Source of the DNA: an uncultured Acidobacteriota bacterium
GTDB lineage: Bacteria > Acidobacteriota > Thermoanaerobaculia > Gp7-AA8
Direction of reading: 5' to 3'
Assembly (NCBI GenBank): GCA_963822445.1
Contig: CAWGHO010000003.1
Location: forward strand, 288,001-352,000
Length of the DNA: 64,000 nt
The notes under the pieces were generated by a model, which did no database searches, was not told where the DNA came from, and saw nothing but the letters and a program-made list of their open reading frames with translations. This document shows positions 3,415 through 63,413 of the stretch, piece after piece. Each line of letters begins with the position of its first letter. Position 1 is the stretch's first letter. The position numbers were made by a program, and so were the translations under genes.

Positions 3415-3428
3415 TTGGTAGCGCATAC
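3415..3428 (-). repeat. Short copy of the tRNA-Glu 3' end (decayed att core)
   Basis: TTGGTAGCGCATAC is identical to 63337-63350; intergenic, same orientation as the other copies. Confidence 0.55.
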
Positions 3429-3721
3429 CGATGATGTTGGGACTTGCCGGCGCGGCGTCAGCGGCATGCTGAGCACGACCTAGTCGCTCGCCGTACGACT
3501 GCGCGATCGCGTCGTCGACGGCTCGGCGAACTCCAGGCGGCATCGGCGTCCGTCCCGATCGACAACGCGACGTCTGGCGCCTCGCGGCGCCGGAGCTCGA
3601 GCGGAACTCGGGGGGATGACGACGAGGCGCAGCGAGCGAGGAAGAATCACGCCCCGCTCCCGGTGCAGCGCGTGCATGCTGGCGAAATTGCGCTCGCCGC
3701 CGGCATATACGAGATGAGGCC

Positions 3722-4315
3722 ATGCGCGACAACGAACAACCGCCCGCCGATCCGCGCCTGCTCGCCGCGCTGGCGAAGGCGGACCTGGACGAGCTCGCGA
3801 GCAGGCTGCTCGGGCTCGCACGCAAGAAGATGTGCCGCCGATGGAAGGGCTTACCGCCGTCCGGCGAGACGCCGGAAGACGTCGTCCAGAAGGCTTTCCA
3901 TCAGGCGCTGAGCGGCGTCCGCAAGTTTCCGGAGGGGAACGTCGATCTCTACGTCTTCCTCGTGATGGTGGTGAGGAGCCTCATCAGCCATCTCGCCGAA
4001 AAAGAGGAGAACCGCTGCGTCCACACGCCGATCGAAGAAAGCGCGGACGTATTGATGGATTGGAAGTACACGCCGCGAGAGACGGAGCTCGCGGCAGAAG
4101 CGGATGTCGCATCCGTGCTCCGGGACTTCGCGGCGGACAAACTGATGACGGATTACATCCGCTTGCGGAGCGAAGAGCAGTGCCGGAACGCCGCCGAATA
4201 TGCCGGCGCTCTCGGCGTCACCGTCGATGCGATTCACAACATGAACCGTCGCCTCGCGCGCTACCGCGACCGGCAGAGACGCGAAACGAGACCGACCGAT
4301 GAACGACCGAACTGA
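3722..4315 (+). CDS. ECF-type sigma-70-like factor
   Basis: Region-2-like TPEDVVQKAFHQAL...FLVMVVRSLISH; region-4-like HTH AAEYAGALGVTVDAIHNMNRRL. Confidence 0.65.
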   Translation: MRDNEQPPADPRLLAALAKADLDELASRLLGLARKKMCRRWKGLPPSGETPEDVVQKAFHQALSGVRKFPEGNVDLYVFLVMVVRSLISHLAEKEENRCVHTPIEESADVLMDWKYTPRETELAAEADVASVLRDFAADKLMTDYIRLRSEEQCRNAAEYAGALGVTVDAIHNMNRRLARYRDRQRRETRPTDERPN

Positions 4316-5357
4316 ACATCGCCCATACCGCGAGCTCGATGACGACGAGCGTTACTACGCGACGGCTCCGATCGACGAGATCCGTCGCGAGCTGAAGCAC
4401 TACGGCGTGCGCGTGGAGCCGGCCATCGTCGCGGTACGGGCACTGATCGACGAGCAGACTCCGCGCGTGCCGGCGGCGTCCGCGCGCCGCGTTTCCGCGC
4501 TCGGTCCCGAGACGACGTATCTCCAGCACCTGACATTGTTCGAGCGAATCGCTGCGTTCACCGCGCACCGAGGCCATTTGACCGCTGACGAGACCGTGGA
4601 GTTCGTCCAGATCGTGCTCGTGAAACTGTTAGAGAACGACTACGAGATCATCCGCAAATTCGAGGGCCGCAGCAGTTTCTCCACCTATCTCACTACCGTG
4701 ATCATGCGTCTGCTCCACCAGTGGCGCGTCGAGCAGTGGGGGAAATGGCGGCCCTCCGCCGAGGCAAGAGCGCTGGGGGATAAGGCCATCGCGCTCGAAC
4801 GCATGGTGAGTCGCGACGGCTTGTCGTTCTCGGAGGCCGTGACGGTGCTCACGCAGCACCGTCCGCAGTACTCCTCCATCAAAGAGCTCGAAGCCATCTA
4901 CCTCCGACTCCCACTCCGCAAACCCCGGCCGGTGCTCCTCTCGGACGACAGCGTGCTGGCGGAGCTTCCCAGCGAGGACTCGGCGGAGGAACGCGTCCGC
5001 GCCGGCGAGCGCGAGATCGCAGCGCGCTCCGCTGCCGCCGCTGTCGATCGCGCGATGGGCGGCTTCAGCCCGGAAGACCGGCTCATTCTGCAGTTGCGGT
5101 TCTGGGATGCGAAGACGGCGCCGGAGATCGCGCGGGTCATGCACCTCGAGCCGAGGAAGGTCTACACGCGCCTCGAACGCTTATTCAAGGGGCTGCGGCG
5201 GGCTCTCGAAGACGCAGGGATCGACCATGCGGCCGTCGGCGAGTTGATAGACCGGCCGGCGTTGGATCTTTCGTTGGAGCCGCGGCCGGAGCGGACCTCT
5301 ACTCCACAATCCGCAAGCGGTCGAAAAGCCCCAGAATCAAACGGCACTCGGCGCTGA
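4299..5357 (+). CDS. ECF sigma-70 factor with N-terminal extension
   Basis: IIRKFEGRSSFSTYLTTVI (region 2); FSPEDRLILQLRFWDAKTAPEIARVMHLEPRKVYTRL (region 4). Confidence 0.8.
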   Translation: MNDRTEHRPYRELDDDERYYATAPIDEIRRELKHYGVRVEPAIVAVRALIDEQTPRVPAASARRVSALGPETTYLQHLTLFERIAAFTAHRGHLTADETVEFVQIVLVKLLENDYEIIRKFEGRSSFSTYLTTVIMRLLHQWRVEQWGKWRPSAEARALGDKAIALERMVSRDGLSFSEAVTVLTQHRPQYSSIKELEAIYLRLPLRKPRPVLLSDDSVLAELPSEDSAEERVRAGEREIAARSAAAAVDRAMGGFSPEDRLILQLRFWDAKTAPEIARVMHLEPRKVYTRLERLFKGLRRALEDAGIDHAAVGELIDRPALDLSLEPRPERTSTPQSASGRKAPESNGTRR

Positions 5358-5802
5358 CGATGTCCGCGTCGCCGCGCAGCTTCTGTGGAAGGCGAGGCGG
5401 CACTCCTCCCGACGAGGGCGGCGAACCGCGCGAAGAAGATCTTTCTCTCGTCAACAGCGCAGGACTTGGTGGCTACCGCAAAGTGGCCGAGGATGTTGTG
5501 CACGAACCGGAGAGCTACGTGTACGGGAACGCGCCAACAATGTCCGCGCTCCACTTATCGGCATACAGCGACATGAGCGCATCGCTGGCCACCGTCGAAC
5601 CGAATCCGTTCAACTACGGGCAGGTCCAGCCTTGCGATGCGCCATTGTTAGTGCGTCCTGGCAAGTCCGCAGACATGCGTCGCAGAAAGGGGGATGGACA
5701 GGCGCTGGGCAAGAGTGCAGAAGCTCCCTTTCCGCCGCTGACAGGGACCGATTTTCAATGCTCGAATGTGCAGTGGCTACCCTGATCGTTGGGAGGAGGT
5801 TC

Positions 5803-5847
5803 GGTAGCCCATACGGGATTCGAACCGCTGTTACTGCCGTAAGAGGG
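5803..5847 (-). repeat. Degenerate copy of the tRNA-Glu 3' half (old att site)
   Basis: GGTAGCCCATACGGGATTCGAACCGCTGTTACTGCCGTAAGAGGG aligns with tRNA 63339-63383 with a few substitutions. Confidence 0.85.
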
Positions 5848-6187
5848 ACAGAAGAAATACGCTGAGTTTCTGCATCTACGCCCGGGCACGTCGGACGAGC
5901 TGCTCGACATCTTCGACCGCGAGATCTCGCTCTAGTCGATGGGTCAGCATCGGGTCGCCCTGCCATCGCGCGTCCGAAAAACGTGCGGTGGCCGATTCAG
6001 AATGGCCGTCGGCTTCGATTGCCGGTACGCGCAAATCGCGCGCTCGGTCCATTGCACGGGCCGGAAACTCATGAAAAACGTCTTCGCCACCATCCGCATT
6101 ACCTGAAGTGTGGAAGGGTAGGGATCAGGCGTCGTTCGGGCTCTCCTCTGTTGATACGGTCTCCAGGTTTGCCGAGAGAGAGGTCCG

Positions 6188-7516
6188 ATGGCTCATCGGG
6201 TGCTGGCCGTTGGTGCCGGCTCTGCCGCGCCGCGGATGGTTTCTTCATTTGCAAAGGACGACGTGCGGTTCGTCTTCGTCGACGCCGACCGGGAGAACTT
6301 CGCCTTCGCCGTGTCGCAGCACCGCCCGCAACTCGTCGTGCTCGACATGACTGTCGCTCCGCCGGGCGGCGTGATGGAGTGGCTTGCGGCGCGGAAGCGA
6401 CTGCACGCCGCCATCGCCATCGTCCCCGCGTGCGATTCCGCGCCCGAGTTGCTCGAGCTCGTGGACGATTTCGTGATCGCCGGCGACGGTTTCGAGGACG
6501 AGCTGCGGCATCGCGCGTTGCGGCTCCTCGGACTCTCGAATGATCTCGACGCGGTTGCGTCGCGGCTCAGCGAGGAGCTCGCCCTGCGGCAGCTCGTCGG
6601 CGACGATCCGGTCTTCGTCGACGTGCTGCGGCAGATCGCCCGTTACGGCCGCAGCGAGACGCCGGTGCTGATCATCGGCGAGACGGGCACCGGGAAGGAG
6701 CTCTGTGCGCGTGCATTGCACCACATCGGTCCGCGGCGCAACTTCCCGTTTTTTCCTGTCGATTGCAGCGCGCTGCCCGATCACCTCTTCGAGAACGAAA
6801 TGTTCGGGCACGCGCGCGGCGCGTTCACCGACGCCGCGTCGGATCAGAAAGGGCTGGTCGCCCTCGCGGAGCATGGAACGCTGTTCCTCGACGAGATCGA
6901 CTCGCTCTCGCTCAGCGCGCAGGGGAAGCTGCTGCGATTTCTCCAGGAGCGGATGTACAAGCCGCTGGGTGGAGAGAAGCTCGTGCGGGCGGATGTCAAC
7001 GTGCTCGCGGCGTCGAATCGCGACCTGCACGCCGCGATGCGCACGAAGAATTTCCGCGCCGACCTTTTCTACCGGCTCGACGTCCTCGAGATTCGCATGC
7101 CGCCGCTCCGCGAGCGCCGTGGCGACATCCCGCTGCTCGCGCGGCACTTCCTCGCCGCGGCGGCCGGCCGCGCGGGATGCAGGCGCGGATTCGCCGCCGC
7201 ATCGCTGCGAAAACTGTCGGCGTACGACTGGCCGGGCAACGTGCGCGAGCTCGCGAACGTCGTGCAACGCGCCGCCGTCGAGAGCGATGGCGAGGTCGTT
7301 CTGCCGTGCCACATCATCCTTCCGGGCGCGCCCAGGGACGACGAGATGAGGACGACGTTCCGCGCGGCTCGCTCGCTCACGCTCGAGACCTTCGAGCGAA
7401 TGTACGTGCAGTCGATGCTCGAAAAGCACGCCGGCAACGTCACGCGCGCGGCGCGCGAGGCAGGCCAGGAGCGCCGCGCGTTCGGACGGCTGGCGAAGAA
7501 GTACGGGCTGTCGTGA
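6188..7516 (+). CDS. Sigma-54-dependent enhancer-binding protein (degenerate receiver, AAA+, Fis-type HTH)
   Basis: Walker A GETGTGKE, GAFTDA loop, Walker B LFLDEI, FRADLFYRL, WPGNVREL, GNVTRAAREAG. Confidence 0.93.
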   Translation: MAHRVLAVGAGSAAPRMVSSFAKDDVRFVFVDADRENFAFAVSQHRPQLVVLDMTVAPPGGVMEWLAARKRLHAAIAIVPACDSAPELLELVDDFVIAGDGFEDELRHRALRLLGLSNDLDAVASRLSEELALRQLVGDDPVFVDVLRQIARYGRSETPVLIIGETGTGKELCARALHHIGPRRNFPFFPVDCSALPDHLFENEMFGHARGAFTDAASDQKGLVALAEHGTLFLDEIDSLSLSAQGKLLRFLQERMYKPLGGEKLVRADVNVLAASNRDLHAAMRTKNFRADLFYRLDVLEIRMPPLRERRGDIPLLARHFLAAAAGRAGCRRGFAAASLRKLSAYDWPGNVRELANVVQRAAVESDGEVVLPCHIILPGAPRDDEMRTTFRAARSLTLETFERMYVQSMLEKHAGNVTRAAREAGQERRAFGRLAKKYGLS

Positions 7517-9039
7517 CGAGGCGCACCTCCCTCCCGCCCGAGCAGCAGTCGCAGGTGCCCCTGCGGCCGAGCGGCAGTGCTCCCGATTCGAGCGCGCGGC
7601 ACGAGCCGCTCCTGCAGCTCCAGCAAACCGCGGGCAATCGCGCGGTCACGGAGCTCGTCGAAGCTCAGGAGCCGGCGCAGGAAGTGCCCGCGCGCGACCC
7701 GCTCGATCTCGACGGCGCAGTCGGCGAACGTGGAGAGAACTGCGCCGCGGATCTCGCCAAAGTGCAGCGCCGTCTCGTCGAAGTCGGAGCCCTGCAGGAA
7801 TCCGACGTCATCGCTGCTGCGCCGGATTCCTGCGTCGATGCATCAGCGCTCGCGGCCACCATCAAGGCGATCCGCTCCGTGCAGCGCACGCTCTTCGACC
7901 GCGACAACGTGGACGGAACCATCGACCCGCTCGGCCGGACATGGAGCCGCCTGCGAACGCTCGATGCCGCCACCCTCGCCTCGATCGCCGCGGAGCGCGT
8001 CGCGAGAAAACAGAAGAAAAAGGAGAACGCTCTCGCCCTCGAGGCGGAAAAGAAGCAAGTCGCCGCCGCCAGGCTTGAGCAATGGAACACATCCTTCGCT
8101 GAGAGGTTGCTCGCGAAGTACGCGGTGTATCTGCCGTTCGCGACGGATTACGTGAGCCTCGACGAGAGCGGCCTCGCGGCGGCCCTCGCTCCGTTCGTGA
8201 AGAGCAATCCCGGTCTGCTCGCAAAAGTCTTCGAGCGTCTGGACGACAGCGACACCGACGACGTTGCGTACGAGCTCGCGGCGGGTGCGTCGGATGCGGA
8301 GCTCGCAGGATTCGACCGCGGCGTTCTCGAGACGATGCAACGCGCGATGAGCGGCGGAGTGAGGACGAGCGGCGAGGCCGGGCAGATCGCGCGTCTGGCT
8401 CGTGCGCTGAATCCGGAGATGTCCGCGAAGAGCACGGGCGTCGAGAAATCGAAATCCGCTGCCGGGGGCGAGGTCGTCGCACCGCCGGTGATCGAAGGGG
8501 AGACTCTCGCGGACCGGATCCGGTTCATTCACGAGCAATACGACCGCTATTTCGTCACCAGGGCGACGACGAACAACTGTCACGCGGCGACGAAAGCGGC
8601 ACTCAACAAGATGGGATGGGATATCGGCGGCGCGGGGTCGGCCTTTCTTCAAAAAGATCTCGCCGATGAAGGTCTGTCAAAGGAGCAGTCGGCCGCGCTT
8701 CTCGCGGGTCTGCTCGCGGAAGTTCAGGCAGGGCGGCCGGTCGCAATCGGCATCGATTACCAGGCCGGCTCATCGAGCCCTCGTACGCTGGCGATTGTCG
8801 ATCACTGGCTCTACATCGTTGCCGTCACCGTGGATGACGGCGGGGCGATGGTCCTGGTCGCATACGAGAACGTCGACGTCACGTCGACGATCACGGACGG
8901 GAACATCATCGTCTTCCGCATCGACGAGGTCGGGCGCATCCATCACGGTGCGTTTCGCGAGGAATCGAAGAACAAGTTCTCGAACACTCCTCACGTCGTC
9001 GTGAACTTCAAGCCCGTTCACCGCATCGCCAAGCCATGA
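7513..9039 (+). CDS. Putative eCIS effector with peptidoglycan-binding-like and papain-fold-like domains
   Basis: GTG overlaps the upstream stop (GTGA); LQQTAGNRAV; DLAKVQRRL...DGTIDPLGRTW; NNCHAAT...DHWLYI...YEN. Confidence 0.6.
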   Translation: MTRRTSLPPEQQSQVPLRPSGSAPDSSARHEPLLQLQQTAGNRAVTELVEAQEPAQEVPARDPLDLDGAVGERGENCAADLAKVQRRLVEVGALQESDVIAAAPDSCVDASALAATIKAIRSVQRTLFDRDNVDGTIDPLGRTWSRLRTLDAATLASIAAERVARKQKKKENALALEAEKKQVAAARLEQWNTSFAERLLAKYAVYLPFATDYVSLDESGLAAALAPFVKSNPGLLAKVFERLDDSDTDDVAYELAAGASDAELAGFDRGVLETMQRAMSGGVRTSGEAGQIARLARALNPEMSAKSTGVEKSKSAAGGEVVAPPVIEGETLADRIRFIHEQYDRYFVTRATTNNCHAATKAALNKMGWDIGGAGSAFLQKDLADEGLSKEQSAALLAGLLAEVQAGRPVAIGIDYQAGSSSPRTLAIVDHWLYIVAVTVDDGGAMVLVAYENVDVTSTITDGNIIVFRIDEVGRIHHGAFREESKNKFSNTPHVVVNFKPVHRIAKP

Positions 9040-9044
9040 GCCAT

Positions 9045-9875
9045 CTAACGGGCATCGCCGATGATCTCGACGCGAGGATTGGCGGCACGGAATGCAGCCA
9101 CCGCCGCCGCATCCACCGGCGTGTTTTCGATCCGCACCACGCGGAGGGTCGCAAGACGGGCGAGCGGGCCGAGATCGCGCACGCCGGTGTTGTAGAGAAA
9201 CAGCTCCTCGACTTCGCGCGCGTTCTCGATTCCCGCGAGATCGGTGATGCGCGTGCCGCTCAGGTCGAGCCGGCGGACAGTGCGGAACCAGCGCAGATCG
9301 CGTAACACGTCGAGTGAGTCGATGCGGGTCTCGTGGATGGCCAGCACTTCGAGCCGATCGAGGCCGCGAAGCGGAGCGAGATCCGCGACCGCGGTTCCCT
9401 CGATGTACAACTCGGTCAATGCGGGCAGTTCCTCGACCGGCGCAAGATCCGCGACCGGCGTATGGGCCACGTCGAGGTGAACGAGCTCGCTCAATCCGCG
9501 CAGAGGCTCGAGGCTCCGTACTTTCGTCGCTCGTGCGCGAAGTACGCGGAGATGTTCTTTCCCCTGAACCGGCGAGAGATCGTCGATGGGTGTGCTGCTC
9601 ACGTCGATCTCGCGAAGCAGCGACAGCGCGCGGAGCGGTGCGAGATCGCGGACGGCGAGCCCGGGCAACACGAGGACTTCCAGCCGGTCGAGCTTCGCCA
9701 GCGGCTCGAGGCTCAACGGGAGTTGCACCGGGCTGCGATGGGGATTCGTCTGAATCACGCGCAGCTCCCGAAGCCGCGTCAGCTTCGCGAGTGGCGCGAG
9801 ATCCGGCGGGGACACGTTGACCACATCGACGACCTCGGAATCGAGTGGGAAGTTGCTGCCGCCAAAGAGAGCCAT
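9045..9875 (-). CDS. Leucine-rich repeat protein (internalin-like repeats)
   Basis: Repeats of DLAPLxxLxxLxxLxLxxTxV; ATG 9875 overlaps the upstream stop (TGATG). Confidence 0.9.
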   Translation of the reverse strand: MALFGGSNFPLDSEVVDVVNVSPPDLAPLAKLTRLRELRVIQTNPHRSPVQLPLSLEPLAKLDRLEVLVLPGLAVRDLAPLRALSLLREIDVSSTPIDDLSPVQGKEHLRVLRARATKVRSLEPLRGLSELVHLDVAHTPVADLAPVEELPALTELYIEGTAVADLAPLRGLDRLEVLAIHETRIDSLDVLRDLRWFRTVRRLDLSGTRITDLAGIENAREVEELFLYNTGVRDLGPLARLATLRVVRIENTPVDAAAVAAFRAANPRVEIIGDAR

Positions 9876-11323
9876 CAATACATGCTCGGCAGCGCCCGGT
9901 AGTGCGCGTTCAACCAGTCGATTAGTGCCTTGTCCCTGGCCGCATTCTTGAGGAGCGCACCGTACTTCACGACTGCGTCTGCAATGATCGCGTCCCTCAA
10001 CTGATCGTCCGTCATCCAAAACGCGGCAAAGGAGAACGGGAAAGGCACGCTGTCGACGAAGCTATCGACGGCGCTGACACCATGGGCAATGCTTTCGGCC
10101 AGCGTGACGTCGAGGGTCGTGATCAGCGCCTTCCCGGCCGCCTGCTCATGCACCGTTAGATCCATGAGCTTCGACATCTCCATGATGAGAGGCTCATTGT
10201 CCGTGAACGGCTTGTTGTTGCCGGCCAGGTACGCCTTCCGCACTCCGCGGATGAGAACATGCGCGTCGACCGATGCGTCCCATGCCTCGCGCGTGTAGTT
10301 CTTGGCAGCGGCCCGGATCTGCTGGTCGCGAGTCTGTGGGGTGCCCGCCGCGGTCACGCCTGGCGTGAATTTTCCGGGGAACTTGCTCGTGCCCATGTCG
10401 CGGCGCGGCAGTTCCTCGTAGTGTGCGGCATTGTCGATCTTCGTCGCCTCCTCGGCCTCGAAGAACCCGGATGTGCCGTAATAGACATGATCGTCGACCG
10501 CGGCCGAGCTGAGGTGAGCCCCTTCGTGGATGATCGTCGCCTTCGTCTCGTTCGGGTCGATCACCTTCGCGACGTCCAACAAGAGGTGCATCTTCTTCTT
10601 TCCGTGGAGGGCGTAACCGCCAAGACCGATCTCGGGGTCGTCGAGGTTGTAATCGGTGGTGACGTGCGGGTCCATATCCTTGGCGATGTCTTGGAGCGCC
10701 TTCTTCGTCGCTCCGTATCTCGTCTTCGCCAGACTGGCCTGTGCGCCGAAGACCTCGGTCATTCCTGTAGCGTCGGACTCGACCTTCGCGACCACCTTGG
10801 CGGCATCTTCGAACGCAGTCTTGAGCTTCGGTTTGTCCGCCGTCTTCACTTTGGTGTCGGCTTCGAGGATCGATTTGTACATGTTCTCGCGATCGGTTAC
10901 GTCGATGGCCTTGTTGAACTCCTTCTCGTCGATCACGCCTTTGCCGGGAAAGATTTTCGCGATGATCGTCGCCACCGGGTCCTTGCTCTTCAGCTTTCCT
11001 TCGTACTCCATCCGCCCGAGCAACTGCGCAACGCGATCCTTGATCACGGCCTCGGGGATTTTCAGGTCCTTGTCCGTGTAAGCAGCCTTCAAACGCTCGA
11101 ACGACGGCACCCGGAAGTGCACGCCGGGGTCTGCCATTGCAGCGGCAACGGGATGCACGATGCCTTGCAACGGGAGCTTGATCATCGCGTTCGAGACGGC
11201 CTGGTTGCCCGCGGCGCGCTGAAGGTCGTGCAGCGGGTGCGCGGGCGTCACCGGCGTCGAGCTCGCGGTGGTCGCCGAGGTTGTCTTCTCAGGCGGATTT
11301 TTCTTTTGAAGTGACTCGCGCAT
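9875..11323 (-). CDS. Putative effector, M35/aspzincin-like zinc metalloprotease, copy 2
   Basis: IIHEGAH...DDHVYYG...NAAHYEE; N-terminal LQRAAGNQAV. Confidence 0.7.
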   Translation of the reverse strand: MRESLQKKNPPEKTTSATTASSTPVTPAHPLHDLQRAAGNQAVSNAMIKLPLQGIVHPVAAAMADPGVHFRVPSFERLKAAYTDKDLKIPEAVIKDRVAQLLGRMEYEGKLKSKDPVATIIAKIFPGKGVIDEKEFNKAIDVTDRENMYKSILEADTKVKTADKPKLKTAFEDAAKVVAKVESDATGMTEVFGAQASLAKTRYGATKKALQDIAKDMDPHVTTDYNLDDPEIGLGGYALHGKKKMHLLLDVAKVIDPNETKATIIHEGAHLSSAAVDDHVYYGTSGFFEAEEATKIDNAAHYEELPRRDMGTSKFPGKFTPGVTAAGTPQTRDQQIRAAAKNYTREAWDASVDAHVLIRGVRKAYLAGNNKPFTDNEPLIMEMSKLMDLTVHEQAAGKALITTLDVTLAESIAHGVSAVDSFVDSVPFPFSFAAFWMTDDQLRDAIIADAVVKYGALLKNAARDKALIDWLNAHYRALPSMY

Positions 11324-11329
11324 CAGCGG

Positions 11330-12778: not shown

Positions 12779-12884
12779 GACTGACGACGTGACGCAATGT
12801 CGGTTCGCAGTACGTCTTTGTCGAGTGAGCGAAATCCCCCCACCGCCGGGTCGGAAATGCGCTCTCGCGGACGCGCTGCGCGGC

Positions 12885-12900
12885 GGGTCGATTCCGACCC
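12885..12900. promoter_or_regulatory. Palindrome, candidate upstream activator site
   Basis: GGGTCG-ATTC-CGACCC in the divergent intergenic region; another GGGTCG half-site at 12848. Confidence 0.4.
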
Positions 12901-12941
12901 ACCCGTGAAGTACCTTTCCTGCATTTTCAGTAACTTACGGT

Positions 12942-12956
12942 TGGCTGCGCGCTTGC
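12942..12956 (+). promoter_or_regulatory. Sigma-54 (-24/-12) promoter of the eCIS operon
   Basis: TGGCTGCGCGCTTGC has exact TGGC-N7-TTGC spacing; IHF-like TTTCAGTAACTTA at 12925-12937. Confidence 0.65.
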
Positions 12957-12975
12957 GAAGACCTCCCCCCGATCC

Positions 12976-47061: not shown

Positions 47062-47097
47062 GGGAAGGAAGTTGGTACCCCGGTCGGCTCGACCGGT

Positions 47098-54745: not shown

Positions 54746-54762
54746 ACGAATAGGTGAGACCA

Positions 54763-55635
54763 ATGACGGATCGTCGAAGAATTCTCATCGTCGATGACAG
54801 CGAATCGTGGCTGCAGACCATACGACTGATTCTTGGCGCACAATACGATCTCACATGTGTGACCAGCGCCGCCGAAGCTCAGGCTCTGATTGCGACGGAG
54901 AGATTCAACCTCGCCATCCTCGATCAGAGGCTTCCCGGGGGGCCTTCCGGTGTCGAGCTGTTTATGGTGCTGCGTGCGGTCCAGCCTGATCTGCGCGCCA
55001 TCATCCTGACCGCGCACGCCGAGGTCGGCGACGCAGTCCACAGCATAAAAAGCGGCCTGTACGACTACATTTCGAAGAGCGATGGAGCAGATCTGCGGAC
55101 AGAGCTACGCTCGCGCGTCGAACAAGCATTGCAGACCGCCCCGCGTGACGTAGACGTTGCGACTCTGCTGCAATGCGACGAAGGTGACCTCCTCGAGTTC
55201 AAGTCATCCGCACGATGGGACATGCGCGCGGCGCGCGCCAGCCATGACATCGAGACGATCATCGTGAAGGCCGTGGCCGGCTTCCTCAATTCCGACCGCG
55301 GTGGCGTGCTTCTGATCGGCGTTGATGACAATCACAACGCGATAGGTCTCGAACATGATTACCGCACGTTCAAAAAGTCGGGCCGCGATAGTTTCGCCAA
55401 TTTCCTGCGCACCCTCTTGCTCGACGCGTGCGAGAAAGACATCAGCCGGCTGATTGAGATCGACTTCCACGACATCTCCGGCAAAGACATTTGCCGTGTC
55501 CGCATCGGTCCATCTCCTCGCCCAGTCTTCGTCAAAGAGGGCCCGACCGAGGTTTTCTACCTGCGAACCGGAAACTCGACCCGGCCACTGAAGCCAAGGG
55601 AGCTCTTGGAGTTCAGTAAAGTGCGATGGAAGTAG
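54763..55635 (+). CDS. Response regulator with AlbA_2 (Schlafen-like) output domain
   Basis: ILIVDD...ILDQRLP; EGDLLEFKSS...AGFLNSDRGGVLLIGVDD...FYLRTGNST. Confidence 0.88.
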   Translation: MTDRRRILIVDDSESWLQTIRLILGAQYDLTCVTSAAEAQALIATERFNLAILDQRLPGGPSGVELFMVLRAVQPDLRAIILTAHAEVGDAVHSIKSGLYDYISKSDGADLRTELRSRVEQALQTAPRDVDVATLLQCDEGDLLEFKSSARWDMRAARASHDIETIIVKAVAGFLNSDRGGVLLIGVDDNHNAIGLEHDYRTFKKSGRDSFANFLRTLLLDACEKDISRLIEIDFHDISGKDICRVRIGPSPRPVFVKEGPTEVFYLRTGNSTRPLKPRELLEFSKVRWK

Positions 55636-55971
55636 CGTGTGCGAATTACGCCCTCGCTCCCGGCTCAGCGCGAATGATCTCGTCTTCTAATGCGGCGCTT
55701 CGACAAGATCACACCCACAAGCTCCAAATACGCATAGATCGTGTCTTTCACGCCTTGCGAATTGCGCGTAGACATCTTGGATCGCGAAACGCTCCGTCGT
55801 GGTGGTCGTTCGTGGAGGCGGAACTTTACGCTCCATCCGGCAAAGAATTGCAGCGGGAGCCGGAGGCCCGCTGCCTTAACGAGCTCTGTGCCTTGCCGCA
55901 CGCGCAAGCTCTTCAAAGCAAACTTTAGCGCTTGAAGGTTTTTCGCCCGCGCTCAGTAGCGCGTTGTGGTG

Positions 55972-57195
55972 CTACCCGGCGCGCGGCACTTTTGGTGGCG
56001 ACAACGCGTCGAGGAGTGCAGCAAACCCGTTCCTTTTGAAAATATCGACGTGTTGGAAGCGATGGAGCGACGGTTCCCGTGGACAGTCTTCGAGCCGTGC
56101 CGGGATGAAGAATGTTGCACCATCCGCCTTCTCATCCTGACGGCGTAAAGCGAGCTTCACTTCGCGACGCATCACGCCCTCACGTCCCACGGAATTTCTC
56201 GAGACGAAGAAAACGAAGTAATGCGAATCTTTGATCGCTCTCTCGATCTCGAGTTCCCACTCGCTTCCCACGCGAAGCGATTTTTCGTCCATCCATGGAT
56301 AAAACCCTATCTTCGTCAATCTGCTGTGCAGCCGGGAGACAGTGGCGAAGTCCGCTCGCGCGTAACAGAGGAACACCTTCGTGGCAGGGCGCTGATCATT
56401 CAGGATGCTGTTAATCATCGCTGGAAGGGAAGTCAGCCGGTTCTTGAGGATGTGTTTGAGAGCACCGCGCCGCGCGCTTTCGAACACGGCGTCGGGGTCG
56501 TTCTCGTCCGAGATCATGATCGCCCGCAAATCGGGAACGCGCTTCCGCAGGCGCATCAGCAGGTCCAACCCAGAGACATGGCCAGCGAGGTTCACATCGA
56601 CGATGGCGAGGGCTGGGGGGTGCTGAGTGAACTTTCTGAACGCGTCATCGGCATCCGTCGCCGCGATCGGCTCGAATTCTTCGCTGAGGATGTCGAGCAT
56701 TTGCTCAAGCGAGGACGGATCGCTGTCGACGAGGAGTAAGGCGGGACGCGACTCATTTGGCACGAAACATCGCTTCTGTCCGCGTGATGCCCGCACGCTG
56801 GTCGGAGCAACGGTAGCAGGTGCAATGCCGATCGCGTCCTGAAACGCACGGCGGATGCCGCTCCATGACATCGAGCCCTTCGACAAATACCGAAACGCGC
56901 CGAGTTCATCGGCCTCCTTCGCGGAGTCCAGGTCGGGATAGCCCGTCAGAACGATAACTTTTCCAACCGCCAAATGCCGTCTGCGGGCTTCTTTGAGAAT
57001 GTCGAGTCCGGACATGTCACGCAATTTCAAATCGAGAACGATGACATCAAAGACGTTGGACTCGATCAACTCCAGTGCTCTCGAGCCGTCGTCGGCTTCG
57101 GTGAATACGCAGTCGAATCCCGTTAGCGTACTCCGCAGCATGTTGCGGATGTCGTCGCGATCGTCCACGAGCAATACTCGTGAGCGCCGCGTCAC
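55972..57195 (-). CDS. REC-REC-TIR response regulator (paralogue)
   Basis: GTG 57195 overlaps the kinase stop; VFLCYARAD...PWMD...RREVKLAL...FIPARLE. Confidence 0.9.
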   Translation of the reverse strand: MTRRSRVLLVDDRDDIRNMLRSTLTGFDCVFTEADDGSRALELIESNVFDVIVLDLKLRDMSGLDILKEARRRHLAVGKVIVLTGYPDLDSAKEADELGAFRYLSKGSMSWSGIRRAFQDAIGIAPATVAPTSVRASRGQKRCFVPNESRPALLLVDSDPSSLEQMLDILSEEFEPIAATDADDAFRKFTQHPPALAIVDVNLAGHVSGLDLLMRLRKRVPDLRAIMISDENDPDAVFESARRGALKHILKNRLTSLPAMINSILNDQRPATKVFLCYARADFATVSRLHSRLTKIGFYPWMDEKSLRVGSEWELEIERAIKDSHYFVFFVSRNSVGREGVMRREVKLALRRQDEKADGATFFIPARLEDCPREPSLHRFQHVDIFKRNGFAALLDALSPPKVPRAG

Positions 57196-59945
57196 CGCGT
57201 TGCTCCACGTTCGGCGTCTGGGAGTGTGATGACGAACCGGGAACCGCACTCTGCTCCACCGTAGACCTCGATGTTTCCGCCGAGCGTCTGCAGCTGAGCC
57301 CGCGCCAGCCACAGTCCCAACCCATTTCCCCTCGGTTTCGTGGTGAAGTCTGCGTCGAAGATTCGCCGCAGGTGCTCAGGTTTGATTCCGATTCCGTTGT
57401 CCTCGACAGATACCTCAGCCATTCCATGACTCCCTACGGCAGTGCTGATGCGAACGACGCCGGGCCTCGTGCCATCCAAAGCCTGAAAGGCATTGAGAAC
57501 GACATTGCGGATGATCTGTTTGAAGGGCGCCGGGTAAATGCCTCGAACGATCGGGCGCTCGCTCAGGGCAAGCTCGAGCCTTCCGTCATAGCGATCGAGT
57601 GTCGGAGTGAGCTCGCGGATCGTCTCCGTAATCACTTCATTGAGCTCGGATGGTTCCTTGTCGCGCACTCGTCCGGAAGAAAACCCGGCGATCCCGTTCG
57701 CAAAATCGGTTGCCTGCTCCGCGACGTTCTCGAGCCGCGAAAGCATTTGCACCACGTGCATGTTAGGGTCGCGGAGCTCCGCGCGGATCGCGGCGACTGT
57801 TACCGGGATGATGCCGATGGTGTTGTTGATCTCGTGCGCGACCGCCGCGACCATCGTCGATAGAGCTGCATTTCGTTCGGCTATCGCGAGACGCTCGTTC
57901 TGGTGCTCGTAAATCTGCGCGTTGTCGATGGCCACGGCTACGTGATCGGCGAACGTGCTGAAAAGCGCGAGATCGCTGTCCGCTTGCCCGCTCTGCACGC
58001 CGGTTCTCTTGATCACTTTCATCACGCCTATGACGCGGTGTCTGGCAACGACCGGCACGATCATCAGGGAAAACATTTCCGCGGAGAGACCATGTTTGGT
58101 TCGGAGGAAATCAAGCACGATCTTGTCGTCCTTGCTGTTCACGACCTCCGCGGCCGGCAGCAGGAGGGGATTTTGGCTCTCAGCGACCGTGCCAGTGAGG
58201 GCCTCTCCAATGCGATAAGACGCGCGCTCCACCAGCGACCGCGGGATGCCGAACGACTCCTTCAATACAAGTCGGTCGCCGTCGAGCAGGAAGAGTAAAC
58301 AGATATCCGCCTGCATCACTTCGGCGGCTTTTCCGATCGTGAGCTTCAGCAGTTCATCGATGTCAGTTTCGGAGTTGATGATGTGCGCGACTTCGCTGAG
58401 AGTTCGGGTCTGCTCGACCTGCCGGTTTTTGTCGTGCAGCAACTCTGAATTCTGAATGGCAATGCCAAGATGATTGGCCGCTATCTCCAGAACGACGAGG
58501 TCATCGCGTACGAAGCCGCGCTCCAGGAGCGCTTGGCGGTCTGTCATCGCGGTGGCACGGTCGTAATAAATCGACTTCTTGTTAATCGCGCGCAACACTC
58601 CGCGAACGTGGCCGCCGATGCGGATCGGCACTCCGAGATAGTGATCGACTCTGGCCGATGGAATGTGCCTCATCGAGACATGACGGCCTTCGTGATCGAA
58701 ACGCGTATCGTCATGCGCCCGTGAGATCGGAGTATGAGTCAATTCGGGCAGTAGCACCGACTTCGCGCTAGTGAATACATAGCCGGTCAGACTCTGGCCG
58801 GGTGCATATCCTTCTTCGAGTCCGGTAATGGTTTCGCCGCTCAGATCGACGACCTTCCGGAGAACTCCGTCTTCAAGGTCATATAGGAACACCGAGACGA
58901 CTTCGGCACCGATGATTCCCGCTATGCGGCGCGCCACGATCTCGCACAAGCTCGTGACGTCGCTGAGCTCCAGCCCATTGCTGATCGAAGCGAGCATCCA
59001 CGCGAGCGCGTCGTAGCGAGACTGAAGTTCCTCGCGCCTGTGGTGGAGCCAATGCTTTGAAATCGCCAGCGCCGCCTGATCGACGAATTCGCTGATCAGT
59101 GCGCGCCGTTCTTCGCTGAAGTAATTCGCGAGCTCGCTGCTGACATTCAGCGCGGCATCGACGCTCTGGCCGTAGAGACCAGTCCGGATCGGAACGATGT
59201 ACGCCGCACGCGCCGTTTCGAAATAGGCCCCCCCGCTGTCCATCGCTGGGTCGCGCATCTGTCTGAACTCGGGTAGTGCTTGCAGGTCGTCGAACAGCTC
59301 TGCTGAACCTGATTCCACGACTCTGCCGGAGAACAGCTCACCTTTCTTGCGCGGGGGTTCGAATGCGGAGCGCAGCCGGGCATCGCCGGCGTATCCGCGG
59401 AGCTGGTAATCGCCCGCCCGCGTGTCGTAGACGCGAATGTGACACGTGTAAGCACCGGCAGTGGTCCGTACAGCTTCGCAGATCTGGTCGAGAGTCCGGG
59501 TGAGTTCGTAGCCTTCATTGATGCCGCGCTGAATGTCGAGCAGCATTCGCATTTTGCGGTCGAGGGCCTGACGCTCCAGATCGGCGAACGCCTGATCGAT
59601 GGAGAATCGCAGCGACTCGGCGCCGTTGTCGGACTTCGAGAGGTACCTGAAAACGTCATAGTGATGCGCACTCTCCGCGCTAAGCGACGTCGAATGTGCC
59701 GTGAGAATGATGACCCGGTAGTTATCCGAGCGCGGACGGATGTGATCCAAGACTTCGGTTCCCGAACCAGGACCGAGAAACAAGTCAAGAATGATCACCT
59801 TGATCTGAGGATCGGAGTCGATGATCTCTATCGCTTCAGTCACCGATGTGGCGTTGACAAAGCGATAGTTGCGTTTTCGGAACATTCGAATGACGGTCTC
59901 GCGATACGCCCGATCGTCCTCAATGAAAAGGACATCTTTGCTCAT
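57192..59945 (-). CDS. Hybrid kinase REC-GAF-GAF-GAF-kinase
   Basis: MSKDVLFIEDD; three GAF-like repeats; VAHEINN; NAFQA; DNGIGI; GNGLGL. Confidence 0.92.
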   Translation of the reverse strand: MSKDVLFIEDDRAYRETVIRMFRKRNYRFVNATSVTEAIEIIDSDPQIKVIILDLFLGPGSGTEVLDHIRPRSDNYRVIILTAHSTSLSAESAHHYDVFRYLSKSDNGAESLRFSIDQAFADLERQALDRKMRMLLDIQRGINEGYELTRTLDQICEAVRTTAGAYTCHIRVYDTRAGDYQLRGYAGDARLRSAFEPPRKKGELFSGRVVESGSAELFDDLQALPEFRQMRDPAMDSGGAYFETARAAYIVPIRTGLYGQSVDAALNVSSELANYFSEERRALISEFVDQAALAISKHWLHHRREELQSRYDALAWMLASISNGLELSDVTSLCEIVARRIAGIIGAEVVSVFLYDLEDGVLRKVVDLSGETITGLEEGYAPGQSLTGYVFTSAKSVLLPELTHTPISRAHDDTRFDHEGRHVSMRHIPSARVDHYLGVPIRIGGHVRGVLRAINKKSIYYDRATAMTDRQALLERGFVRDDLVVLEIAANHLGIAIQNSELLHDKNRQVEQTRTLSEVAHIINSETDIDELLKLTIGKAAEVMQADICLLFLLDGDRLVLKESFGIPRSLVERASYRIGEALTGTVAESQNPLLLPAAEVVNSKDDKIVLDFLRTKHGLSAEMFSLMIVPVVARHRVIGVMKVIKRTGVQSGQADSDLALFSTFADHVAVAIDNAQIYEHQNERLAIAERNAALSTMVAAVAHEINNTIGIIPVTVAAIRAELRDPNMHVVQMLSRLENVAEQATDFANGIAGFSSGRVRDKEPSELNEVITETIRELTPTLDRYDGRLELALSERPIVRGIYPAPFKQIIRNVVLNAFQALDGTRPGVVRISTAVGSHGMAEVSVEDNGIGIKPEHLRRIFDADFTTKPRGNGLGLWLARAQLQTLGGNIEVYGGAECGSRFVITLPDAERGATR

Positions 59946-60883
59946 TCGAGCTCCGAGGATGTCGGGCGCGGCAGCTCGATGGTGAAATACGCACCGGCTC
60001 TCTTGCCCGATCCAACTGAGATGTTGCCGCTGTGCGCTTCGACGATGCGCCGCGCCGCAAACAGCCGCAGGCCGATGGTCCATTGATAGGTCGTAAAAAA
60101 CAGCTTGAAACATTTCTCCTCGACTGCCTCGAACATCCCGCAGCCATTGTCTCGCCAGAACAACAGGACGTCACGCGCTGTAACATGCGACGGGATATGG
60201 ATTGCCGCTCGTGCCCCCGCGAGGGCGATGGCATATTTCGAGTTCGCCAGTGGAATTTCCAACACGAACGTCATCTGATCCGGGTCCGCGACGACGAGTA
60301 TCTCGTCATCGGGCAGGACGATTGAGACGCCGATCCCTTCGATGCCCAAGGCGAATCGCGACAGCATCGATCGCATCGACACAATTTCGCGCTGGGGCGG
60401 CTCGGGATTCAGTGCGAGCTGCCGTTGTTGCAACCGCCCGATAGCTTTGCGCGTTGCGGCGCGAATCGCCTCGCACACCTTTTTGATTTCATCGCTCGGG
60501 GGGCCGTTCAGTTCCAGAGTCTCGACCCATCCGCGAATGATCCCGATGGTATGTTTCAAGTCATGCGCGAAAAGAGAAGCAAACCCGGACACCATTCTCA
60601 GAGCCAGCGCATCCGCCTCAGCGCGCACCTTCGCCGGCCGCAAGCGGACGAGGCGTCTCTGTAGAGCAACGAAACTTAGGAACTGCCCTCGTATCATGTC
60701 GATGCGGAAGTATGATAGAGCCCTCAGCTTTGAGAAGGCAGAAGACTTCACAGCGCTATTCCTCTCGACGCGTTCCCCAGCGCGCGGGCTCTTCCAAGTC
60801 GGTCGCCAATATTGGCGGATCAACGCGAGAGCTATCTCGATCCCGCGTCGGCAACGAGACATGACCTGGCGATGCTCGCGCAC
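59942..60883 (-). CDS. Sensor-less, partly degenerate histidine kinase (possible pseudogene)
   Basis: FAHDLKH and DNGCGM present; N and G2 boxes altered; start uncertain. Confidence 0.6.
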   Translation of the reverse strand: MREHRQVMSRCRRGIEIALALIRQYWRPTWKSPRAGERVERNSAVKSSAFSKLRALSYFRIDMIRGQFLSFVALQRRLVRLRPAKVRAEADALALRMVSGFASLFAHDLKHTIGIIRGWVETLELNGPPSDEIKKVCEAIRAATRKAIGRLQQRQLALNPEPPQREIVSMRSMLSRFALGIEGIGVSIVLPDDEILVVADPDQMTFVLEIPLANSKYAIALAGARAAIHIPSHVTARDVLLFWRDNGCGMFEAVEEKCFKLFFTTYQWTIGLRLFAARRIVEAHSGNISVGSGKRAGAYFTIELPRPTSSELE

Positions 60884-60959
60884 TCGCTACGGAAGAGCGG
60901 AGCAAGTTGCATGTTGCGCTCCGAATACTTTTCGGTTCTCTCCTCCGATGGGGTTTCTT

Positions 60960-61001
60960 TGGTAGCGCATACGGGATTCGAACCCGTGTTACCGCCGTGA
61001 G
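60960..61001 (-). repeat. Exact 42-bp copy of the tRNA-Glu 3' half (att site)
   Basis: Identical to 63338-63379. Confidence 0.97.
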
Positions 61002-61134
61002 CGGGGCAGCAGAAGAGAGCTACATCTCTCTGATTCCACGTACTTAGCGCAGTGTGATCGATTTCGTGCGTCCACGGAGATACGCCGTTTTAGGCGCCCG
61101 GGTGGCCAAGTATGGAAGTGGTTTTGAGAGTGGC
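61002..61134. repeat. att-arm-like sequence, copy A
   Basis: Shares AGCTA.ATCT, TCTGATT.CACG, GTCCACGGA, CAAGTATG..AGTGGTTTTG.GAGTGGC with 47139-47271. Confidence 0.8.
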
Positions 61135-61148
61135 GAAATCGCCGCTTT

Positions 61149-61787
61149 TCAGAGGAGAGATGGCGATGATTCGACTTTTGTTGGTGATGGCGGTGAGTTG
61201 GTTTGTTCGGCTTCACTCGCTGCCTCGAAGAGGTCAATTGCGAGACTGCTCGTTCGGTACGTAATGCGGCCGAGGACGAAGGGCTCGACGCTCGCCGCCC
61301 GGAGTTTCCAGTCGCGACGTAGGTAGACGAAGAGCCGGTGCGTGAGCAGCTCGTGCACGATGAGGTCCGTTCGAAGCACGAAGTTGCGCGGAGTCGCCTG
61401 TGACGGTGGAACGAGGGCCGCCGTCACGTAGAGATGTGCGACGCCTGCTCCCGAATGCCCGGCACCTGGCTCGATGACGATCTCGACGTCACCCACTTCG
61501 GTGCACCACACCGTGCCGTCCCGATTGGAAGCGGTCAGGTGATCGGCGACGTAACGTGCGATGTCGCGCCGCAGGCCGGCGGAGAGCGCTTCGCTGGTGC
61601 GAGGCACCGGTTTGCCGAAGCCGATCTCGAACTGCGCGGCAGGGAGACGCAGCTCCGCCTCGACGTGCCCGCGACCGACGTCGAGAAAGATCGTGCTGTC
61701 GGGGAGAGGATGGCTGAATACCTCGGGCGCTGCGAACAGCATCGAAGCAATCAGCAGCATGGCAGACCCCAGACGCATCGCCTTCAC
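61149..61787 (-). CDS. Exported hypothetical protein
   Basis: Signal peptide ending VFS-HP; coupled to the upstream gene. Confidence 0.6.
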   Translation of the reverse strand: MKAMRLGSAMLLIASMLFAAPEVFSHPLPDSTIFLDVGRGHVEAELRLPAAQFEIGFGKPVPRTSEALSAGLRRDIARYVADHLTASNRDGTVWCTEVGDVEIVIEPGAGHSGAGVAHLYVTAALVPPSQATPRNFVLRTDLIVHELLTHRLFVYLRRDWKLRAASVEPFVLGRITYRTSSLAIDLFEAASEAEQTNSPPSPTKVESSPSLL

Positions 61788-63232
61788 TCTGAGTGCCGGA
61801 CCGTGCGGCGTCGCCCGGCCGGTTCGTCGTCGTGGATCGTCAGCATGGTCGAAGCCGGACTGCCGAGCGCCGCGCCACCGGCAGCACTGCTCAGCGTGAA
61901 GACGACGGTCTCCGGGCCTTCAACCAACTGGTCGTCGAGGATCGGAATCTGAAAGCTCTTGCTGCCGCTCTCACCATCGGCCCAGGTCAGCACACCGCTC
62001 ACTGATTCGAGATCACTCCCTGCGGTTGCCGTCCCTCCGGCCACTGCGTATGCGACGCTCACCGCTCCGGTCGTGCCGCCGATGCGCTGAATCTGAATCG
62101 TCGCGACGCCGGCACTCTCGGCGACCTCGTAGCTCGTCTCCGCGAACGTGATCGTTCCAGGCTCGAGCACGAGCGTGCCGTCACCTCCGTAGTCGAGGGT
62201 CTGATCGCGCCAGATCGCGTGATAGTGAACCTGGTCGGGGATCGCCGCGGGGCCCTGCACGACGATCTCCATCCACGCACGGGGCCCGTCGATGCGGATG
62301 TACGAGCCTTGCGTCGCGAGAGTGGCGTTGCTTCCCGCCCAGCCGATATATGTGTTCTCGAGTGCGCTACTGCTCGTGTAAGCGGCGAGAAAATCCGAAG
62401 CGACGCCGCTCGGCGTGTCATTCACCCAGGCCTCCATCGCGTCGACGACGAGTGCCTGCTGCGTCGCCGACAGTGTCGAGACCTTCAGGCCGGATGGCGT
62501 CGGGAAAAGATTGTCGTCGCCTGGACCGAGCAGAACGTCGCCGAATGTACCGCTGAGCTTCGCCGCGGCGCGCTGCGTCGCATCGAGGCCGGCGATCATC
62601 GCGACCATCACGTCCACCTTCGGTTTGAGCGGCTCGTAGCTCTGACCGTTGAGCGTGAATCTCTGCGGATTCATGCCGGTGAAGTACGGCGTCGGGCTCT
62701 CGACGGAGCCGTGATAGTAGAAATTGAGCGCGTAGTGGTGTCCGCCGAGCTGGAGGATCCACTCCCCGGTCGACGAGGGCGTGCCGATGAAGGCGATGAA
62801 GTAGATCCCGCTGTTGTACGTGGAGCTCTGGCCGAGGGAGCCTAAAAAGTCGTCGGCCATACGGATGCCGTGGAAAGTGCCGTAGCCCGCACTGGAGAGC
62901 GCCGCCTGGGCGACGGCGAGCGCGGCCTCGAGCTGCGTCGCAGACAACGTGCTGAATCGCAGACCGTTGTTGCAGGCAGCAGCGCATGGAAGGTTCGACC
63001 ATTTGCTCGATGCCGTGGCGCGGTTGAAGGCGTATTGAACGCCGTTCCTCTGTGTCGCCGAGAGTGTCGCGAGGAAACTCTCGGCAGCGCTGCAGACCGC
63101 TTTGGCCGGAGCGCTGCTGCCCGCGGTGCAGTTGCTCGTCTGTGCGGTAACCGTCGTGGCGCTCAGCAGGAGCGCGAGTGCAAAAGTGCATGCGATCAAG
63201 ACCTTCGATGGCTGATTCGGCATGGTCGCCAT
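61784..63232 (-). CDS. Secreted DUF3500 plus Calx-beta domain protein
   Basis: Signal peptide; WSNLP; QLGGHHYALN; YIRIDGP...HYHAIWRD; Calx-beta GTATAGSD...IPILDDQLVEGPET. Confidence 0.85.
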   Translation of the reverse strand: MATMPNQPSKVLIACTFALALLLSATTVTAQTSNCTAGSSAPAKAVCSAAESFLATLSATQRNGVQYAFNRATASSKWSNLPCAAACNNGLRFSTLSATQLEAALAVAQAALSSAGYGTFHGIRMADDFLGSLGQSSTYNSGIYFIAFIGTPSSTGEWILQLGGHHYALNFYYHGSVESPTPYFTGMNPQRFTLNGQSYEPLKPKVDVMVAMIAGLDATQRAAAKLSGTFGDVLLGPGDDNLFPTPSGLKVSTLSATQQALVVDAMEAWVNDTPSGVASDFLAAYTSSSALENTYIGWAGSNATLATQGSYIRIDGPRAWMEIVVQGPAAIPDQVHYHAIWRDQTLDYGGDGTLVLEPGTITFAETSYEVAESAGVATIQIQRIGGTTGAVSVAYAVAGGTATAGSDLESVSGVLTWADGESGSKSFQIPILDDQLVEGPETVVFTLSSAAGGAALGSPASTMLTIHDDEPAGRRRTVRHSE

Positions 63233-63337
63233 TCTGGTCGTTCAAGAGGCGTTTCGCGGCAACCGACCTGCGACAATCCAGGAAATCGAGGCGATTCACC
63301 GCATCGTCGCGGCGGACGTGGAGCGGGGGGAAGGGTT

Positions 63338-63413
63338 TGGTAGCGCATACGGGATTCGAACCCGTGTTACCGCCGTGAGAGGGCGGCGTCCTGGACCCCT
63401 AGACGAATGCGCC
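63338..63413 (-). tRNA. tRNA-Glu, anticodon CTC
   Basis: 76 nt; anticodon arm CCGCC-CTCTCAC-GGCGG; GGTTCGAATCC T-loop; encoded CCA. Confidence 0.97.

Follow-up and report, generated by a model that had tools for sequence, protein, structure and literature searches.

Integrase-less modules bounded by copies of a tRNA 3' end are stacked at tRNA-Glu(CTC) in an uncultured acidobacterium

How did four blocks of accessory DNA, none of which carries a recognizable integrase, come to be stacked at the 3' end of a single tRNA gene? The question is raised by a 64,000-nucleotide stretch from an uncultured Acidobacteriota bacterium, here called the window (G000:C3:288001-352000, where G-numbers denote the genomes compared and C a contig), in which tRNA-Glu(CTC) is followed by a series of blocks separated by copies of its own 3' end. 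The original prediction, made from the letters of this stretch, had proposed that the blocks were cassettes captured serially by an integrase acting in trans. The explanation that we favor, with moderate confidence, is tandem accretion of non-autonomous modules resembling cis-mobilizable elements (CIMEs), for which the integrase was supplied by another element. One tRNA gene here organizes at least 60 kb of accessory DNA into modules delimited by attachment (att) sites, in a poorly studied uncultured acidobacterial lineage.

ARAGORN and Rfam both identified tRNA-Glu(CTC) (63338-63413, minus strand) as the one tRNA gene in the window; it is intact, is the integration target (attB side), and is the single CTC copy in a genome that has one further tRNA-Glu gene, with anticodon TTC. 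Because the gene lies on the minus strand, islands at its 3' end sit at lower coordinates. Copies of the 3' end, hereafter cores, were located by word matching, MAFFT, and blastn-short, with nhmmer as a further check, and the four predicted same-orientation copies were all recovered, at 60958, 47098, 5798, and 3415. The first (60958-61001, minus strand) is identical at 44 of 44 positions, comprising 42 nucleotides of the tRNA and 2 flanking T; the second (47098-47138, minus strand) has 37 exact nucleotides and 4 more past a 1-nucleotide deletion (an A); the third (5798-5847, minus strand) matches at 44 of 50 positions; and the last (3415-3428, minus strand) is a 14/14 remnant. In blastn-short searches against the 6-Mb genome, copies 1-3 gave E-values of 2e-18, 3e-14, and 1e-7, far beyond chance. 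The 14-mer at 3415 is marginal when taken alone, with an unanchored match of at least 14 in 3 of 60 Markov shuffles (0 of 60 for a 14-bp match anchored at the tRNA terminus), and it failed E<1 in the same genome search; it was accepted as a decayed att because a 25-bp core stands at the matching place in G011:C69, upstream of homologues of window 3540-3584 and 3628-3668. The blocks between cores measure 2,336, 13,819, 41,250, and 2,369 bp, as had been predicted (about 2.3, 13.8, 41, and 2.4 kb), and are referred to from the tRNA outward as Modules D, C, B, and A, all four being flanked either by two cores or by a core and the tRNA.

A fifth core copy, inverted and matching at 38 of 39 positions (97%), stands 29.7 kb to the left of the window (C3:258295-258333) and implies either an inversion or an array that was formerly about 93 kb long. 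Together with the arm described below it spans C3:258203-258333 (L001:10203-10333), adjoining a Ser/Thr kinase-PD40 gene. No further decayed cores were detected when a core-plus-arm profile was run with nhmmer over the whole genome, the step in GC content near 40 kb in the window included. The predicted rise of att decay with distance from the tRNA holds within the window and breaks down at this inverted copy, the farthest of all from the tRNA.

A conserved non-coding arm of ~145 bp (armR) adjoins the inverted fifth copy as well as two of the window cores, those at 60958 and 47098, and is not recognizable at the third core. The arm of copy 1 (61002-61146) is 81-82% identical to the arms of G014, G042, and G050, and that of copy 2 (47139-47280) is 91% identical to the arm of G043 and 76% identical to the 61002 arm; beyond the ~145 bp, sequence divergence is complete and different cargo starts. 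Beyond this genome, the arm accompanies the same core in no fewer than 7 genomes and in 11 contigs from metagenomes, and the genus genomes that carry core plus arm are G007, G014, G042 (two copies 31 kb apart), G043, and G050. A degenerate arm motif matched nine stretches in a collection of species-representative genomes, every one of which had the arm and came from a record titled as a Thermoanaerobaculia or Acidobacteriota metagenome-assembled genome (MAG); 15 stretches were matched in metagenomes (11 with core and arm, 1 with fragments, 3 with none), and 0 in viral contigs. The geometry of integration assigns sequence on the right flank of a displaced core to the right-hand element, which makes the arm attP-derived. 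That the 47098 arm is nearer to its G043 counterpart than to the other window arm indicates separate acquisitions, so that the two window arms would derive independently from different lineages of one element family. We also considered the arm as a structured RNA and rejected this, as Rfam matched the tRNA alone and the fold of the core-plus-arm alignment had no covariation support (covariation term +1.08; compensatory pairs 2/42). Promoter-like and terminator-like sites were absent from 60800-61400, and an intact integrase lay within 2 kb of the arm in none of the 24 arm-bearing stretches. The copies are real att scars left by site-specific integration, and a conserved attP-type arm accompanies two of these scars, in agreement with the premise of the original prediction that duplicated tRNA 3' ends mark integration.

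No tyrosine or serine recombinase was found by Pfam in the 70 called open reading frames (ORFs) of the window, and no recombinase by Pfam in 129 stop-to-stop frames adjoining the cores or by NCBIfam in the window proteins; PHROGs, applied to 25 unknown window proteins, returned regulators alone and no recombinase. Searched in six frames over the whole genome, PF00589 (5 matches) and PF00239 (1 match) gave none on contig C3, and a profile built from the tRNA-Glu integrases of relatives reached a best E of 0.09 in six frames of C3:250000-352000. The predicted lack of a recognizable integrase was thus borne out by Pfam, PHROGs, NCBIfam, and six-frame profiles alike, and no integrase remnant, of the kind that would mark ordinary decayed islands, was detected in any of the four modules; conjugation or relaxase genes were likewise seen in none. 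The search of the genome for an integrase beside the same core, which the original prediction had proposed, found none. The only homologue, at C1:496415-497701, lies ~0.9 kb from tRNA-Asp(GTC) and falls below PF00589 detection at E<=0.01; being 42-45% identical, carrying two frameshifts, and standing beside tRNA-Asp, it is unlikely to be the trans-acting enzyme. By these searches the genome is without a cognate integrase for the tRNA-Glu core, which makes the array a fixed fossil at present.

An integrase inside the island next to the tRNA, absent from the window, is present beside the same tRNA in relatives. In G014:C442, G003, G042, and G051 an intact tyrosine integrase gene adjoins tRNA-Glu(CTC) and is transcribed towards it; the G003 integrase is 74% identical to the G014 protein, and that of G042 is a second type, 25% identical to the G014 protein. 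Where relatives have an integrase, it belongs to the newest element and separates the tRNA from the cassettes. In G042 and G051, whose arrays are long (about 127 kb and 74 kb), a single contig carries both a core plus arm and the integrase-tRNA pair. The G014:C442 integrase ORF (L037:1840-3156) reads through the core, its last ~13 residues being encoded by the att site, and an N-terminal PPI(V/T)HP..C..C motif is common to the G014, G003, and G042 integrases. In G035, from another family of the class, a large serine recombinase gene (L019:5392-6906) shares 41 bp with the tRNA-Glu(CTC) 3' end and stands at the head of an 18-kb island with RHS toxins; a second class of recombinase therefore targets the same tRNA.

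Partial cores 0.1-18 kb from tRNA-Glu(CTC) were found in G002, G006, G007, G008, G017, G018, G020, G023, and G043, and cores near this tRNA also occur in other families of the class (G026, G035); tRNA-Glu(CTC) is a genus-wide integration hotspot. Twelve core-bounded modules from nine genus genomes (G002 (two), G006, G007, G008, G018, G020, G023 (two), G024:C27, and G043) had no integrase by Pfam or by a local integrase profile, and modules of this integrase-less kind are the rule at the site genus-wide. Among the genes carried by the twelve are AbiEi/AbiEii, STAND/NACHT NTPases, a GT4-conflict/STAND pair, and metabolic genes, the AbiEi/AbiEii cassettes being 1.9-2.0 kb long and starting exactly at the core in G020 and G002 (70% identity). 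G002 is an unpublished genome, which bears on this AbiE comparison, on 2 of the 12 modules, on one of the baseline values used below, and on an 88% kinase match.

At least two of the window modules recur in other species at identities above that of core genes. The sigma-factor module (window 3671-5385, in Module A) has counterparts in G045, G024 (two copies), G006, G010, and G011 at 82-90% identity, compared with a core-gene baseline of ~75% (three core-like genes, 71-77% against at least 10 genomes including G006, G024, and G012). At five of the six loci aligned across its right end, that end lies 39-415 bp from a core or the intact tRNA; in G024:C27 the module stands between two 24-bp cores, and its rank in the array ranges from tRNA-proximal in G010 to most distal here. 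The DUF3500 module (in Module D, homology from 61208) is 84-87% identical in G023, G012, G022, and G019, the G012 value being 87%, and in G023 it is placed between the tRNA and a full tRNA-like copy. Both modules are without an integrase wherever they were seen. Identity above that of core genes, combined with changing array rank in integrase-less modules, favors spread with the integrase of another element. In G012:C20 the DUF3500 block was also observed beside a 3' fragment of a different tRNA, not tRNA-Glu, in the opposite orientation (L022:5460-5495). In addition, G042 has an extracellular contractile injection system (eCIS), a system also present in Module B, between two core-plus-arm copies, and a colinear eCIS in G024 (30-54% amino-acid identity) begins ~5.5 kb from the tRNA 3' end. 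The foreign composition and patchy distribution typical of tRNA islands are both present: positions 40981-60957 have a GC content of 0.583-0.611 against 0.646 for the whole of contig C3, 7 of the 34 other genomes of the genus match 41001-61000 anywhere, and the interior of Module C is matched in G050 and G024 alone (2 of 34), at 66-72% identity.

From the observed cores and arms, the absence of an integrase, the comparative distribution, and the integrases of relatives, we infer a course of events: which integrase made these junctions, whether the modules moved in trans or in cis, and in what order they arrived. Modules would have accreted in tandem at the 3' end of tRNA-Glu(CTC) through site-specific recombination, most likely by the family of tRNA-Glu-specific tyrosine integrases seen beside the tRNA in relatives. 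Each integration would have displaced the tRNA 3' end to the far side of the module, where it stays as a core of 24-50 bp, and one element lineage would have left, in addition, the ~145-bp attP-derived arm beside the core. The sigma-pair and DUF3500 modules, at least, would have spread between species in an integrase-less state, the integrase coming from a neighboring or co-resident element, either by accretion followed by composite excision or by action in trans. Since att sites are kept and the integrase is missing, the modules fit the definition of CIMEs: they have attL/attR-type flanks and carry no genes for integration, excision, or transfer. As for an origin by decay of integrative and conjugative or integrative and mobilizable elements (ICEs or IMEs), the window is without relics, integrase relics stand beside cores in G007 and G014:C727, and genes for conjugation were seen nowhere. 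The proposal of serial capture by an integrase in trans is supported insofar as the sigma and DUF3500 modules recur integrase-less at identities above the baseline, and is weakened by the integrase decay in G007:C52 and G014:C727, which keeps ordinary decayed islands alive as an explanation.

Several observations weigh against tandem accretion of such modules, or against parts of it. The 41-kb Module B is a composite in which GC content steps near 40 kb, and no core stands at that step. The ~75% baseline consists of three genes and has G045, G010, G023, G022, and G019 outside it. Module ends are imprecise, as seen in the 39-415 bp spacer between sigma module and core and in the 5.1 kb to the nearest core in G045, and the left parts of the sigma module vary among genomes. 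The inverted fifth copy counts against it as well, and the AbiE comparison depends in part on the unpublished G002. Integrase relics lie beside cores in G007:C52:8054-8263 (the C-terminal 79 amino acids, with one stop) and in G014:C727 (70% identical to the G042 integrase, with stops); integrases have therefore been lost by decay in these genomes, which could explain every module of the window. Finally, a complete integrase-bearing element of modest size (core plus arm, cargo, integrase, tRNA) was not recovered, so that arm and integrase are linked by co-occurrence only; in G003 a distal core was absent within the ~20 kb to the contig end.

Tandem integration is expected as a rule to leave the newest element nearest the tRNA, and the original prediction had read the array in this way. 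Core decay fits that order. It is doubtful for the 2.3-kb block of Module D, which occupies the same tRNA-side place in G023; moreover, it is the adjacent Module C that has the most foreign GC content (0.583), and the inverted copy, at 97%, is farthest from the tRNA.

The strongest competitor, unlikely in our view though deserving real weight, is that these are ordinary decayed islands, each of which arrived as a self-sufficient or prophage-like element with an integrase of its own beside the tRNA that was later deleted, nothing having been captured in trans. The tRNA-Glu integrase relics beside cores in G007:C52 and G014:C727 are what such a history would leave, as is the pseudogene debris in the third part of Module B (an 86-amino-acid glycosyltransferase fragment and an IS1-like relic), and homology of Module D with relatives begins 59 bp inside the 3' end of the 212-amino-acid ORF, suggesting a deletion breakpoint. 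Set against this, none of the four modules retains an integrase trace, the twelve further integrase-less modules in nine relatives include some of 1.9-3 kb that are wholly cargo, and the sigma and DUF3500 modules, closer between species than core genes, never occur with an integrase.

A bolder version of tandem accretion, which we regard as improbable, would make tRNA-Glu(CTC) a shared cassette platform at which the integrases of some genomes routinely insert and remove integrase-less cassettes whose sole provision for mobility is a 24-50-bp core, with or without the ~145-bp arm. If this were true, cargo such as defence genes, sigma pairs, eCIS, and signaling modules would circulate between species as a commons, and the locus would be the functional counterpart of an integron, with a tRNA gene as its base.

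A quite unlikely alternative is a hotspot of homologous recombination, in which the tRNA, cores, arms, and neighboring genes provide homology and site-specific integration made the first scars only. Core plus arm does supply ~190 bp of homology common across species, the spacers between module and core are variable, and defence hotspots of E. coli and Pseudomonas are described, in the portion of PMC10121019 drawn on here, as having no identifiable mode of mobilization. Many modules, however, have 24-28-bp cores and no arm (G024:C27, G006, G018, G045), little length for homologous recombination to use; gene order beyond the array is poorly conserved among genus members, and module rank varies between genomes, which is more easily produced by site-specific events.

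Less probable again, and to our minds very unlikely, is the integron-like array of the original prediction, that is, a resident integrase at a fixed site that serially captures promoterless cassettes bearing a structured site. The stack of short cassettes, the repeated site, and the growth of core decay with distance from the tRNA resemble such a platform. The tests that define one failed: there is no integrase by the array and none cognate in the genome, attI and attC are missing, in relatives that have an integrase it belongs to the newest element, with the cassettes on one side of it and the tRNA on the other, the arm hairpin has no covariation, and the cassettes measure 2-41 kb, carry their own regulators, and occupy both strands. 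That the copies are tRNA pseudogenes from duplication, or chance matches, is scarcely credible: G023 and G008 do carry a second full-length tRNA-Glu-like copy by the real gene and the 14-mer alone is near chance, but all copies here are 3' fragments in the same orientation, the E-values of the first three run from 1e-7 to 2e-18, and two copies adjoin the arm, whose conservation across many genomes despite differing cargo contradicts such an origin.

This architecture is already known, as CIMEs and tandem accretion, from other bacteria (PMC5704250, PMC3146451; statements here follow parts of each paper cited). CIMEs keep attL and attR and have lost, or lack, genes for integration and transfer (PMC5704250). 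The present modules resemble streptococcal CIMEs and accretion of the ICESt1-ICESt3 type in having att sites without such genes (PMC5704250); they differ in that no ICE or IME partner is present in this genome, the host is an acidobacterial MAG and not a firmicute, and conjugation and relaxase genes were unseen in the modules. A second parallel is with the ssrA islands of Dehalococcoides, 16 of which have an integration module and 15 of which do not, the latter being suggested by their authors to be CIMEs (PMC3146451): in both cases tandem islands lie within ~100 kb downstream of a single-copy small-RNA gene, are limited by direct repeats of the RNA 3' end, and have extra sequence conserved beside the repeats (PMC3146451). 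In Dehalococcoides the target is the transfer-messenger RNA (tmRNA) gene, the repeat is 20 bp, and the enzyme is a CcrB-like serine recombinase (PMC3146451), whereas here the target is tRNA-Glu, the cores are 24-50 bp, relatives have tyrosine integrases, and no module has an integration module.

In work on E. coli defence islands and on pipolins, likewise, tRNA and tmRNA genes are integration hotspots at which defence systems are found, many occupied sites have no recognizable mobile element, and tandem accretion is invoked for rearranged islands (PMC10121019, PMC11551731). There, a hotspot is recognized from the core genes on its flanks or from a marker gene (PMC10121019, PMC11551731); here, modules are individually delimited by att scars and their cargo includes an eCIS and regulators. 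Chromosomal integrons share the ordered stack of cassettes with a repeated recombination site, but this array has no IntI-type integrase, attI, Pc promoter, or attC hairpins, its modules are multi-gene and bidirectional, and its repeated site is a tRNA 3' end. Literature on genomic islands of Thermoanaerobaculia, judged by titles and the opening of abstracts, held nothing on this locus. What the locus offers is exactly placed borders of modules for use in annotation, a family of candidate integrases with a testable conserved arm, and a natural data set on the movement of non-autonomous cargo, without revealing a new mechanism.

The gene content of the modules was assessed by Pfam, NCBIfam, PHROGs, and PADLOC profile searches of the window proteins, and the functional coherence claimed for each block holds for Modules A, C, and D and fails for the composite Module B. 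Module D (61002-63337, minus strand) comprises a 212-amino-acid protein (61149-61787), to which the profile searches assigned no family, and a DUF3500/Calx-beta protein (61784-63232). Module C (47139-60957, GC 0.583) encodes GAF/PAS histidine kinases, receivers, two REC-TIR proteins, and one REC-Schlafen/AlbA_2 protein; the two TIR proteins match Aga_TIR/ThsB-like PADLOC models, and the unusual phosphorelay cluster (47534-60883), in which TIR and Schlafen/AlbA_2 are output domains of response regulators, may be a two-component-controlled defence or NADase system. Module A (3429-5797, plus strand) consists of two extracytoplasmic function (ECF)-type sigma-factor-like genes (3722-4315 and 4299-5357); the possibility that this pair hides a recombinase was rejected, both proteins matching ECF sigma models alone.

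Module B falls into three parts. The first (5848-12975) has a sigma-54 activator (6188-7516), a leucine-rich repeat (LRR) protein (9045-10019), and two paralogous 482-amino-acid proteins, which lie in tandem between the LRR protein and the eCIS (9875-12778) and have no match in Pfam, NCBIfam, PHROGs, or PADLOC. The second (12976-40980, plus strand) is a 28-kb eCIS with Pvc16, two sheath, two tube, VgrG-related, baseplate J, P2-I/NHL, and CIS13-like genes, an AAA+ ATPase, and a DUF4157 eCIS_core protein, the last probably being the eCIS payload. The gene for this protein is the final one of the eCIS (38986-40980) and has a third-position GC content (GC3) of 0.74, below that of the rest of the system; the regional drop in GC starts at this gene and not at a core. 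A prophage or phage satellite was rejected as a description of the window, since the sheath, tube, and baseplate genes are those of the eCIS, PHROGs gave regulators alone, and the arm is absent from viral contigs. The third part (40981-47097, GC 0.611) has HicB-like, XRE helix-turn-helix (HTH), HTH-M78, and IS1-like genes in addition to the glycosyltransferase fragment. The HTH-M78 protein (43823-45148) matches PD-Lambda-2_B at 1e-43, and its neighbors (43260-45938) match no PD-Lambda-2 A or C model. The IS1-family transposase-like gene (45015-45938), which overlaps the start of the HTH-M78 gene, scored 9e-14, below cutoff, and is the sole mobility relic found in the window.

Around tRNA-Glu, synteny is poorly conserved in the genus to the point that an unoccupied site is not definable among species representatives. 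Just left of the window, C3:274476-287000 (L002:6476-19000) is also accessory, with a methionyl-tRNA synthetase (MetRS)-like paralogue and B3/4, methyltransferase, NACHT-FGE, Mur-ligase-like, NlpC/P60, and PGA_cap genes; of the 34 other genus genomes G007 and G012 alone match this region, the G007 matches lying near integrases. The MetRS-like gene was rejected for the core-gene baseline as being accessory, matched by G007 alone of the 34 (G012 matches a neighboring part of the query). On the other side, eight relatives have one gene at a distance of 0.1-2.6 kb from the tRNA-Glu 5' side that is 38 kb away here (C3:351500-389300), and this displacement indicates a large insertion or variable region on the 5' side of the tRNA as well.

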